Below, in pieces: positions 20,924-25,527 of a stretch of DNA of 54,024 bases. Source of the stretch: Pseudomonas phage PMG1. The position numbers were made by a program, and so were the translations under genes. Each line of letters starts with the position of its first letter. Position 1 is the first letter of the stretch. The notes under the pieces are model-generated. The model had not been told where the DNA came from. It ran no database searches and worked only from the letters and a program-made list of their open reading frames with translations. The stretch lies in sequence record NC_016765.1; one strand, given 5' to 3'.

Positions 20924-21047
20924 GAGATACGGAATGGTCTAGATATGATCGTCGGAAGTGGCCTCTATCCAGTCGCTAAGTAGCCTCATGATTGTCTGTG
21001 CATGAATAGTAGGTCACATTCCGGCGATTCAATATTAGGCGTTTCAC

Positions 21048-21143
21048 TCATATGTCTTGGTAGTAAGTTGCAATAAGCACTAGCGCCATAAAGGCCGTAA
21101 TTCCTACTGCCTTTATAACTATGATTGAAAATTTTAAATGCAC
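21048..21143 (-). CDS. iap: 31-aa hydrophobic peptide; candidate Iap (inhibitor of alpha-polymerase)-like
   Basis: GTG start preceded by strong SD AGGGAGGA; product MHLKFSIIVIKAVGITAFMALVLIATYYQDI is a single TM helix; AT-rich context beside oac and wzy. Confidence 0.45.
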   Translation of the reverse strand: MHLKFSIIVIKAVGITAFMALVLIATYYQDI

Positions 21144-21325
21144 AGCTATCCTCCCTCTTTTTACTTATAAACCTCTTGCATTTTGGCGCGTAATTTGCTA
21201 GGCGGCTGCCTCGATAGCCGAGGCGATCCTGTTGGCCATGACGCGCTCACTCATCGTAGCACGGTGGGTTTTTTAGCGTAACCAGACGGCGTATACTCGA
21301 CGGCATTTTTCTCCATGGGGATCTA

Positions 21326-23389
21326 ATGGGAATGAATGTCAACTCTGGCATACGGATATCGTCTGGGTACAAGCCTTTCATTGATGGGCTTAGGGCTTTG
21401 TCAATTTTGGCTGTAGTGCTATACCACGCGGGAGTTCCGATGGTATATGGAGGATTTGTCGGAGTTGATATATTTTTTGTTATATCCGGATTCTTGATAG
21501 TTACACATATAGTTTCATCGATTCAGGATGACCGATTCTTGTTCGGAGAATTCTGGGCGCGAAGGGCTTTGAGGATTTTGCCTCCTTACCTGCTTGTTCT
21601 TTTTGTTTGCTCTGCGATTGCGCCATTTATACTTGTGCTCCCCAGAGAGATCAATGAGTTTGGCGATCAAGTAATTTACTCCGCGTTGATGCTCGTTAAC
21701 CATTATTTCCTAGGCCAGCAAGGATACTTTGACGGACTGTCCGAAACAAAGCCGCTGCTTCATCTGTGGTCTCTTTCGGTTGAGGAGCAGTTTTATATAG
21801 TTGCTCCTGTGGTGATTTTTTTATTATATGTGTCAACCTCAAGGTTGGGCCAAAGAAAGGCATCGGTCATTTCGGTATTTTCTGTCTTATGTGTTTTTGC
21901 TGTTTCTCTTTATGGTTGTATAGCGCTTAGTGGTGATGGTGCCGGTAAAAACTATTCGTTCTTTTTGATGCCGCTTAGAGCTTGGGAGTTCATTGCTGGA
22001 GGCGCTATAGCATTTGCTGTGCCATTTGCTCAGCGTTTAGGCAGGCTGGCGTTGGAAATTATTGCAATTGCTGGCGTTGTTATGCTGTTTTATGCGATCT
22101 TTTTCTTCAATGGCAAAAGTCCTTATCCTGCTGGAAAGGCTTTAGTGCCAGTTATTGGTGCTGCTCTTATAATTCTATGCGGAGTTTCCAATCACAAAAT
22201 TTTAGTCTCAAGAATTCTGTCGTTTAGAGTTTTTGTTATGATTGGTCTTGTTTCTTATGCCTGGTATCTTTGGCACTGGCCTTTGCTGACTTTTGGAAGG
22301 ATATATAGCTTTGGGCATAAAAGCATAGCTCTAGATTTGTCGATGGTTGCGATTGCATTTGTTCTTGCATGCATTACATACGTTTATGTTGATAAGAAGG
22401 TTTTGAATTGGAGGAAGTCGCTTAAGCACGGTGCTAGCTGGAAACATTCAGCTTATGCTGTAGCTTTTTGTATTCCGGCGCTAGTATCGGGAGTGTATAT
22501 TTCTAAATATATGTCGGTATCGGTTGGTAATGGGTTTACAGAGGCGCAGATTCCAAGGCCTCCATCAAGTGCTGGAAATTGTAACCTTCATTTGGCAGAA
22601 AGCCCATCAAAGTGCTTGTCGATAGCTAGTGGAAAAGAGATTGGTCTTTTAGTTGGTGACTCGCACGCAGATGCCGCATATCGTGGAATAGCACGTCATG
22701 CGTCCTTGTCCAATTCAGTCATTGCAACATTAAGTTCCGGCGGCTGTGCCGCAATTTTCAATGTTCGCATAAATAACCCAGACGTTGCTATGCGTGAGCG
22801 ATGCGAAAATGGTCGTGAAAATGCCATAAGAATGCTGAAGGATATTAATCCAAAATATGCTGTGCTGTTTTCAAGTTGGTCAATTTATAGTGGCAGAGGG
22901 TATTACTCGCTCGGTGGTGTAGGTCCTCAAACGCCTTTGTCTGATGTGAAGAGAGGTTTTGTTTCCAAGGTTGGAGAAACGATAGATTTCCTTAAAAGTA
23001 TAGGAGTTGAAAGGGTTTTAATAATCGGGCCTGTTCCTATATTCAAGACCTCTGCCCCTAACTGCGTGATACGTTCTCTTCACTATAGAATTAGCCCTGA
23101 CAAAAACTGCTCGGTTTCACGTGATGAGGTTGAGAAATCGAGAAAAGATGTTGTCTTGTGGCTGAAAGAAGCGGCAGATGATAGGTCTGGCGTGAAGTTT
23201 ATAGACCCTATAAATGCTTTTTGTGATGAATCAAAATGTAGAAGCTATGGTGACGAGGGCGTTCTTTATACAGACACTAATCACATTAGTGATGCAGGCC
23301 TTGAGAGGATTTACAATAACAGTAAGAGTGACTTTGACTGGCTGACAAATAGCGATATGCGCTCGGTTGGTTTGAATGGGTCGCGCTAA
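21326..23389 (+). CDS. oac: O-antigen O-acetyltransferase, acyltransferase_3 plus C-terminal SGNH domain (OafA/Oac type)
   Basis: N-terminal FIDGLRALSILAVVLYHAG and multiple TM helices; C-terminal GDSHA SGNH block; ~42% GC. Confidence 0.8.
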   Translation: MGMNVNSGIRISSGYKPFIDGLRALSILAVVLYHAGVPMVYGGFVGVDIFFVISGFLIVTHIVSSIQDDRFLFGEFWARRALRILPPYLLVLFVCSAIAPFILVLPREINEFGDQVIYSALMLVNHYFLGQQGYFDGLSETKPLLHLWSLSVEEQFYIVAPVVIFLLYVSTSRLGQRKASVISVFSVLCVFAVSLYGCIALSGDGAGKNYSFFLMPLRAWEFIAGGAIAFAVPFAQRLGRLALEIIAIAGVVMLFYAIFFFNGKSPYPAGKALVPVIGAALIILCGVSNHKILVSRILSFRVFVMIGLVSYAWYLWHWPLLTFGRIYSFGHKSIALDLSMVAIAFVLACITYVYVDKKVLNWRKSLKHGASWKHSAYAVAFCIPALVSGVYISKYMSVSVGNGFTEAQIPRPPSSAGNCNLHLAESPSKCLSIASGKEIGLLVGDSHADAAYRGIARHASLSNSVIATLSSGGCAAIFNVRINNPDVAMRERCENGRENAIRMLKDINPKYAVLFSSWSIYSGRGYYSLGGVGPQTPLSDVKRGFVSKVGETIDFLKSIGVERVLIIGPVPIFKTSAPNCVIRSLHYRISPDKNCSVSRDEVEKSRKDVVLWLKEAADDRSGVKFIDPINAFCDESKCRSYGDEGVLYTDTNHISDAGLERIYNNSKSDFDWLTNSDMRSVGLNGSR

Positions 23390-23413
23390 TTTGGTTATTA
23401 ATTTGCGACTAAT

Positions 23414-24625: not shown

Positions 24626-24749
24626 GCGTATTGCCTTTCTCCATTCCTAAAAACGTGGCGCGTCATGGTACGCGCTTCAATCATGCTAGTCATTGGATAG
24701 TGAATCGCCATGCCCATCACCGAGCAGAAACTGCTGCATATCCTCCCGA

Positions 24750-24778
24750 ACGCCGGCCCTCGAGCCGGCGTTTTTGTT
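24750..24778 (+). terminator. plus-strand hairpin-T terminator in wzy upstream region
   Basis: GCCGGC-cctcga-GCCGGC followed by GTTTTTGTT. Confidence 0.4.
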
Positions 24779-24786
24779 GGTGCGCG

Positions 24787-25527
24787 TCACGCAGTACCTC
24801 GCCGATCCCTGCGGAGGTAAGACTCCCTTTCCCGCCGAGCGGCGAGCCGCCCGCAGGTCCTTACCGCAATATCGACCGGTATTCCGGCTTTGATGCGCTG
24901 GTGGGCGGTAGAGACGTTGACTCCGAAGTGAGCACAGGCCTGGGCAATACTGGCGAACTGAGTGCCGTCGATCTCGACTCCGGTCAGGCGTCGCTGGTTC
25001 TCGGACGCTTGCTGATGGATCGTGGCCCATCGGCAGTTTTCAGGACAGTAGTCACCGTCTGGGTCGATTCGATCGATGCTGTACCTCCCAGCAGGCCGAG
25101 GCCCCATGTCTTTGAGGAAAGCCTCGAACGACTGATTCCAACGTTCGCAGACCTTGATACCGCGACCGCCCCAGTTAGGGAAGTCCTTGTACTTCTCGTC
25201 GTAGCACCTGCGTTTCATGCCTAGCCAGGTTCTGTACTCCGGGGTTTTCAACCCTCGACGGCTGTGCCCGTGCGCGGTGACTTTGGCTGTACGCTTCCTG
25301 ACGAATTCCCTGTTTGAGCCAAGCGCTGAAGCCCATTCGCTGGCGAGGCACCCGCATGAACGTGTCGAGCCGCTTCGCAAGTTCGACGAGTTCACCTTTA
25401 CCTCGGCTCCGCACTCGCACCGGCAGAGCCAGATAGATCCTCCGTTTTTCCCGGGAGAGTCGTAGGCGACCACCAAAAGGCGCCCATAGCGAAGCCCGGA
25501 GATATCGATCCGTTTCATTTCATTCAC
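24787..25527 (-). CDS. zinc-ribbon plus HNH_3-like (degenerate) DNA-binding/homing-endonuclease-like protein
   Basis: CRCECG...SCGC ribbon; GHSRRGLKTPEYRTWLGMKRRC; YDEKY...GGRGIKVCERW; SIDRIDPDGDYCPENCRWAT...Q; paralog at 46649. Confidence 0.5.
   Translation of the reverse strand: MNEMKRIDISGLRYGRLLVVAYDSPGKNGGSIWLCRCECGAEVKVNSSNLRSGSTRSCGCLASEWASALGSNREFVRKRTAKVTAHGHSRRGLKTPEYRTWLGMKRRCYDEKYKDFPNWGGRGIKVCERWNQSFEAFLKDMGPRPAGRYSIDRIDPDGDYCPENCRWATIHQQASENQRRLTGVEIDGTQFASIAQACAHFGVNVSTAHQRIKAGIPVDIAVRTCGRLAARRERESYLRRDRRGTA

Follow-up and report, generated by a model that had tools for sequence, protein, structure and literature searches.

The island and its genes

The window analyzed here, the whole 54,024-nt stretch of Pseudomonas phage PMG1 (NC_016765.1), carries at positions 20924-24785 an AT-rich island with three genes of O-antigen serotype conversion: iap, oac and wzy-beta. 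The sequence makes it close to certain that this island is the known lysogenic-conversion moron of Pseudomonas aeruginosa phage D3, which a D3-like temperate phage carries here in unchanged form. The GC content of the island is 43.6%, within the range of ~40-45% given in a preliminary description of this DNA, and the remainder of the window has 58.5%; no other segment of the same length in the window has a lower value. Such a low GC content compared with the surroundings is typical of a moron, and the island bears other marks of one: its neighbors are the O-antigen-specific tailspike gene on one side and the lysis genes on the other, and relatives carry other cargo at this site. Every feature proposed in the preliminary description is present at the position assigned to it.

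The gene iap (inhibitor of alpha-polymerase) occupies positions 21048..21143 on the minus strand and encodes 31 amino acids from a GTG start codon, read from the sequence at 21143..21141. The 31-codon open reading frame (ORF) and its translation agree with the preliminary description. The product is the most hydrophobic among the 267 ORFs of 25-40 amino acids in the window. Its best 19-residue Kyte-Doolittle mean is 2.61, over residues 7-25, a profile that bears out the single transmembrane helix proposed for the peptide; the charged residues are at positions 2, 4, 11 and 30.

The gene oac (21326..23389, plus strand) encodes an O-antigen O-acetyltransferase of 687 amino acids, in which an N-terminal AT3 membrane domain is fused to a C-terminal SGNH domain. 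Both domains of the proposed OafA-type enzyme are recovered from Pfam (Acyl_transf_3, E-value 4e-29; SGNH, E-value 8e-37), and the protein matches PHROG 6705, 'O-antigen acetylase', with an E-value of 2e-221. It is 100% identical to the product of D3 orf28 (AAF80788.1). The same fusion of AT3 and SGNH domains is found in GtrC of the Salmonella phages g341c and BTP1, with 28-32% identity to D3 Oac over ~94% of the length. The Oac protein of Shigella phage Sf6 is described as 333 amino acids long, half the size of D3 Oac, and is 22% identical to it (PMC3594210). Members of the OafA/GtrC/Oac family differ from D3 Oac in the target sugar.

Convergent with oac lies wzy-beta (23465..24625, minus strand), which encodes the O-antigen beta-polymerase, a polytopic membrane protein of 386 amino acids. 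The convergent Wzy-like polymerase anticipated at this place matches PHROG 19842 (E-value 5.5e-260) as well as the Wzy-beta protein of D3; NCBIfam holds no model for it.

Identity with the D3 unit

Over positions 20800-24900 the window shows 100% nucleotide identity to phi_D3 (PP944329.1) and 99.9% to D3 (AF165214.2, NC_002484.2). The D3 record contains an iap coding sequence, 'inhibitor of alpha-polymerase', at 21004..21099 on the minus strand of AF165214.2, equivalent to 21048..21143 of the window with a 44-nt offset, and it places iap, orf28 (O-antigen acetylase) and wzy(beta) at exactly corresponding positions. The D3 unit iap-oac-wzy(beta) (AF165214.2 21004..24581) has the same genes as the island, in the same order and orientation and with the same intergenic regions. 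This layout, with iap and wzy-beta on the minus strand and oac on the plus strand between them, is that of the published D3 description (PMC9658991). Iap and Oac are identical in the two phages and Wzy-beta is 98.7-100% identical; the difference lies in the surrounding early region. Alignment of the peptide with D3 Iap, the check recommended in the preliminary description, gives identity to ADE05840.1, and the length stated there for D3 Iap, ~31 residues, is correct (31 residues; PMC12004945). The description had the unit mirroring that of D3 and the peptide "Iap-like". The unit is in fact the D3 unit itself, and the wording understates the case for the peptide, which is Iap.

Only six positions distinguish the window from the 2000-era D3 record within 20800-24900 (23923, 23960, 23995, 24001, 24537 and 24540). 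All of them are inside wzy-beta and five alter a residue: A29G, T30R, A209P, A211P and V235I, window residue first. Wzy-beta is 98.7% identical to D3 AAF80789.2, with 5 residues differing, and 100% identical to the protein of phi_D3. At the six positions the window agrees with the phi_D3 record of 2024, and the differences may be errors in the old D3 record or strain variation.

The unit is a characterized system that has been correctly rediscovered here, and its identity, already known, holds nothing new. A moron composed of iap, oac and wzy-beta is described as altering the linkage and acetylation of the O-antigen (Newton et al. 2001 via PMC3594210), and PAO1 lysogenic for D3 is reported to change from the alpha-linked serotype O5 to the beta-linked serotype O16 and to be protected from superinfection (PMC4815439). 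The same logic, an alpha-polymerase inhibitor together with a beta-polymerase containing a Wzy_C domain, is described for Salmonella phage epsilon15 (PMC4815439), which differs in its host and in its unrelated sequences and is likened to D3 here by description.

Conservation of the iap reading frame

Iap matches the 31-position family PHROG 34981, labeled "unknown function", with an E-value of 2.8e-25, as do all three variant classes of the peptide; Pfam and NCBIfam have no model for it. A scan for its C-terminal motif retrieved 17 IMG/VR contigs, all 17 of which have an intact 31-codon ORF. The same motif gave a single match in species-representative bacterial genomes, a chance occurrence in a permease gene of a metagenome-assembled Pollutimonas genome. 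Across 36 loci, comprising IMG/VR contigs, phage records and Logan contigs, iap occurs in 8 DNA alleles, every one of which keeps the 31-codon ORF. The start codon alternates: it is GTG in D3 and ATG in Fyn8 and the IMG/VR locus L019.

The gene is under purifying selection. Between the D3-type and phi297-type alleles, five of the last seven codons differ, all synonymously, and 17-18 of the 30 compared codons differ nonsynonymously, all upstream of the last seven, in a segment that stays hydrophobic. All Iap variants end in an invariant ATYYQDI. An alignment of five variant peptides leaves M1, A17, F18 and A25-I31 as the sole invariant positions; the other 21 positions vary, and the segment remains hydrophobic.

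Signals around iap and oac

The iap start codon is preceded at a distance of 5 nt by a Shine-Dalgarno sequence, AGGGAGGA, read on the minus strand at 21149..21156. Its core GGGAGGA is invariant among the window, Fyn8 and L019. The exceptionally strong Shine-Dalgarno sequence and the GTG start attributed to the small ORF are thereby both found in place, at 21156..21149 and 21143..21141, respectively.

Further upstream on the same strand is a candidate iap promoter, TTACGC-18 nt-TATAAG (21164..21193), with TATAAG at 21169..21164 and TTACGC at 21193..21188. Both hexamers and the 18-nt spacer of the sigma70-like promoter previously proposed are there, but the match to the sigma-70 consensus is weak: TTACGC shares 2 of 6 positions with TTGACA and TATAAG is without the T that ends its consensus, for a total of 7 out of 12. 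The region shows no enrichment of promoter-like sites, with 5 found against 7.3 expected. The two hexamers are kept in three D3-type sequences, a conservation that is uninformative because these sequences are 97% identical overall. The promoter role of the site is a conjecture that the sequence comparison neither supports nor excludes.

The 182-bp region between iap and oac (21144..21325) is presumably the site of both promoters, as the two genes are described as divergently transcribed and not part of one operon (PMC9658991). All 11 of the 11 Logan contigs share the region unchanged, and its conservation across the D3-type loci is 97%. A terminator scan detected within it, on the plus strand at 21249..21275 and ~55 nt ahead of the oac start, a hairpin with a stem of 9 pairs and TTTTTT behind it. 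This terminator- or attenuator-like element could act on oac by attenuation or halt late transcription that reads through from the tailspike gene. A plus-strand ORF of 32 codons (21183..21281), annotated as hypothetical in phi_D3, spans the hairpin and its T-run; it has no family match and is probably spurious. Another hairpin, of 12 bp, lies where oac and wzy-beta converge (23411..23440). Either strand can form it (z -1.9 for the plus and -3.0 for the minus strand), with a U-run on the plus strand, and it is a plausible bidirectional terminator.

Proposed mode of action and alternative explanations

The identity, domains, layout, hydrophobicity and selection described here were computed from the sequences, and the phenotypes and the mechanism of Wzz mimicry come from the literature on D3. 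Iap is described as a peptide of 31 residues that inserts into the inner membrane by a single transmembrane segment (PMC3854497; PMC12004945). It is reported to abolish the activity of Wzy-alpha in a manner dependent on the dosage of Wzz1/Wzz2, and mimicry of a transmembrane segment of Wzz has been proposed for it (Taylor et al. 2013 via PMC3854497, PMC12004945). In a lysogen of the phage studied here, the three products would act on the Wzx/Wzy O-antigen pathway of the host. Iap, with its basic N-terminus, would enter the inner membrane as a single helix. There it would shut down the host Wzy-alpha, reportedly as a mimic of a transmembrane segment found in the chain-length regulators Wzz1 and Wzz2. 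Wzy-beta would take over from the blocked Wzy-alpha, and Oac, through its AT3 membrane domain and periplasmic SGNH domain, would O-acetylate the polymer. The serotype of the cell would change from O5 to O16, and phages that depend on the O-antigen, D3 among them, would no longer adsorb. Expression of the island in such a lysogen is assumed, given that the island is identical to its D3 counterpart, including the intergenic regions.

We saw no sequence feature that argues against the identity of the island with the D3 moron itself, and the caveats concern its context and details. Wzy-beta scores 26.9 bits against Pfam Wzy_C (E-value 4.8e-6), below the gathering score of 31.7. The candidate iap promoter, at 7/12, falls short of the 9/12 threshold of the promoter scan and was not reported by it. 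Two secondary sources disagree on the Wzz segment that Iap would imitate, the first (PMC3854497) or the second (PMC12004945). Finally, only ~50% of the early/regulatory half of the window (29025-54024) aligns with D3, at 95% identity; the structural half is ~98% identical to D3 over 98% of its length. Judged by these alignments, the window is a mosaic D3-like temperate phage or prophage, not D3 proper. The divergent regulatory half and the failure of the promoter scan to detect a strong sigma-70 promoter for iap would be expected if the island were a silent passenger of the mosaic phage, unexpressed from the prophage. We hold this to be very improbable, since the island and all of its intergenic regions are base-for-base identical to phi_D3 and morons are described as autonomous transcription units (PMC3594210). 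It is still harder to maintain that the 31 codons of iap stay open by chance, in a spacer rich in A and T, with oac and wzy-beta as the only working genes of the island, an explanation to which we assign practically no weight. The gene is indeed short, begins with GTG, lacks a Pfam or NCBIfam model and is skipped by gene callers on most contigs (10/11), and the phi_D3 annotation has a different, plus-strand ORF in its place. A chance frame would nonetheless have to be reconciled with a length of exactly 31 codons in all alleles and loci, with the exchange of ATG and GTG at one start position, and with conserved C-terminal codons that vary synonymously only. The strong Shine-Dalgarno sequence at 5 nt, the match of all three variants to one PHROG and the first rank in hydrophobicity among the small ORFs speak for a gene as well. 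Published experiments, in which the Iap peptide alone is reported to abolish alpha-linked O-antigen (PMC4815439, PMC3854497, PMC12004945), have already refuted the idea of a chance ORF.

How Iap acts on the polymerase allows more than one answer. Because basic residues are present only at the N-terminus, the positive-inside rule predicts an N-in, C-out orientation for Iap, with ATYYQDI at the periplasmic face. This orientation would be parallel to that of the first Wzz transmembrane segment and fits the first-segment version of the mimicry; a PDB profile search with the Iap alignment gave chance matches only and no Wzz. Another possibility is that Iap acts mainly through ATYYQDI directly on Wzy-alpha from the periplasmic face, with the helix serving chiefly as an anchor and general Wzz mimicry being secondary. 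The limitation of invariance to this motif and three other residues, the purely synonymous changes in its codons and the confinement of basic residues to the N-terminus favor such a contact, as the C-terminus would lie on the periplasmic side, together with the Wzy loops reported to be important for function (PMC3854497). Against it stand the published similarity of Iap to a Wzz transmembrane segment and the modulation of the inhibition by Wzz1/Wzz2 dosage (PMC3854497, PMC12004945), and we regard it as rather unlikely to be the principal mode of action. The two modes are not mutually exclusive. If ATYYQDI were the core of Iap, the published model of Wzz mimicry would be refined or challenged. 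The catalog of Iap variants with their invariant motif provides a cheap start for mutagenesis, and Iap is put forward in a recent review as a lead toward inhibitors of Wzy/Wzz (PMC12004945).

Two-gene modules in related phages

The commonest form of the module has two genes, wzy-beta-iap, and lacks oac: it is found on 16 prophage contigs among the 17 from IMG/VR and in the phages phi297, PP9W, Marin and FBPa19/42. The iap variants of this form are located at 2892..2987 (minus strand) of L005 (phi297, HQ711984.1 43765..43860), 2766..2861 (plus) of L007 (Marin), 2388..2483 (minus) of L008 (FBPa19) and 3474..3569 (plus) of L006 (PP9W). The iap ATG directly follows the wzy-beta stop codon (TAA ATG), and GAGGA is contained in the last wzy-beta codons, an arrangement that suggests an operon with coupled translation. 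The form with an oppositely oriented oac inserted between the two genes, in which iap has its own Shine-Dalgarno sequence, is present in D3, phi_D3, Fyn8, L019, the window and the Logan contigs.

The two-gene modules occupy the same site as the D3 unit, likewise convergent with a Gp49-like tailspike gene and adjoining the lysis genes. Their Wzy-beta proteins are 91-97% identical to that of D3 and end in ...NLKIEDN, whereas the D3 form ends in ...KLRIAQVEK; their Iap peptides have 31 amino acids and are 42-45% identical to D3 Iap, with the ATYYQDI end common to both. The D3 and phi297 sequences become homologous again at a point 19 nt within the 3' end of wzy-beta. In every module iap is convergent with the tailspike gene, which has a pectate-lyase fold, and the module lies between tail and lysis genes. 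A tentative and rather doubtful scenario would take the two-gene operon as ancestral and the D3 form as derived from it by insertion of oac, with iap gaining its own ribosome-binding site and promoter; iap of the two-gene form would go unannotated in most phage and prophage records, and the periplasm-facing ATYYQDI, not the variable helix, would be the functional core of Iap in all forms.

Different cargo is found at the site of the D3 island in vB_Pae_CF23a (MK511001.1) and ~15 sibling records, which have a near-identical tailspike gene. The cargo (L004, 3262..4944, plus strand) encodes a protein of 560 amino acids with a C-terminal D-glucuronyl C5-epimerase domain (PF06662, E-value 4e-35), and this cargo could be another moron that modifies the O-antigen. 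Within serogroup O2, the members are set apart by having either mannuronic or guluronic acid, a pair of C5 epimers; no paper connecting the CF23a-type protein with these epimers turned up in a brief search of the literature.

Annotation of iap

Ten phage records contain the Iap ORF, and it is named in three of them, the two records of D3 and that of Fyn8. It appears as a 'hypothetical protein' in PP9W and FBPa42, and is unannotated in phi_D3, phi297 (two records), Marin and FBPa19. In a large assembly collection the exact Iap peptide is called on 1 contig: iap and the 182-nt region upstream of it are intact on all 11 examined contigs that carry the island, and the gene is called on 1/11. The preliminary description had listed the 31-codon ORF as unannotated, which holds for the automatic annotation of phi_D3 but not for the D3 entries in GenBank and RefSeq or for Fyn8. 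Its remark that the peptide is easily missed is apt, with 7/10 phage records leaving the ORF unnamed and 10/11 contigs leaving it uncalled.

Automatic pipelines thus routinely miss iap, to which PHROG attaches the label "unknown function" and for which Pfam and NCBIfam offer nothing. Genome surveys that infer serotype conversion in P. aeruginosa from wzy-beta alone overlook its obligatory partner. The practical value of the case lies in annotation; it has little value as a discovery, the cassette having been dissected genetically in 2001 and the mode of action of Iap studied in 2013.

Borders and flanking sequences of the island

Relatives of the CF23a type are identical to the window through the tailspike stop codon and diverge directly beyond it; the left border of the island is placed by this comparison at the tailspike stop codon. 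The 124-bp spacer between this stop (20923) and the iap stop (20924..21047) contains a long imperfect hairpin at 20931-21044, with arms of ~22 bp and a loop of ~37 nt, whose fold has a z of -3.3 on the plus and -2.2 on the minus strand. The spacer at the corresponding junction of the two-gene modules is only 37 bp long.

At the other end, the region upstream of wzy-beta (24626..24709) is intergenic and shared with a divergent GH19 endolysin gene in Fyn8, PP9W and Marin, where that gene is intact beside wzy-beta. Homology between the window and Fyn8 runs on through this region into the first 76 nt of the endolysin gene (24710..24785, plus strand), a remnant that forms the right border of the island. 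It matches the start of the Fyn8 lysin gene, whose protein product is a Glyco_hydro_19 match, at 74 of 76 nt; the homology ends at 24786. The remnant is truncated where the region of an HNH endonuclease gene begins, the stop codon of which is at 24787. A GC-rich hairpin inside the remnant (24748-24773) was flagged as a terminator by the scanner. Fyn8 reciprocally keeps a remnant of ~86 nt from the 3' end of a D3-type tailspike gene. These reciprocal remnants indicate that the module was probably transferred by recombination along with its flanking sequences.

An Rfam search of the island produced nothing credible. A minus-strand ORF of 32 codons at 24622..24720, hypothetical in phi_D3, overlaps the wzy-beta ATG with its TGA stop codon (ATGA) and is open in most relatives. 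With no PHROG match and with stop codons interrupting it in Marin and L017, it is unlikely to be a gene. Among the small ORFs of the window, the second most hydrophobic is found in the early region (39006..39119, minus strand) and encodes the 37-residue peptide MTITIDLKEAAQVLIFGGFFVGSVFMFAVAFVEVAGL.

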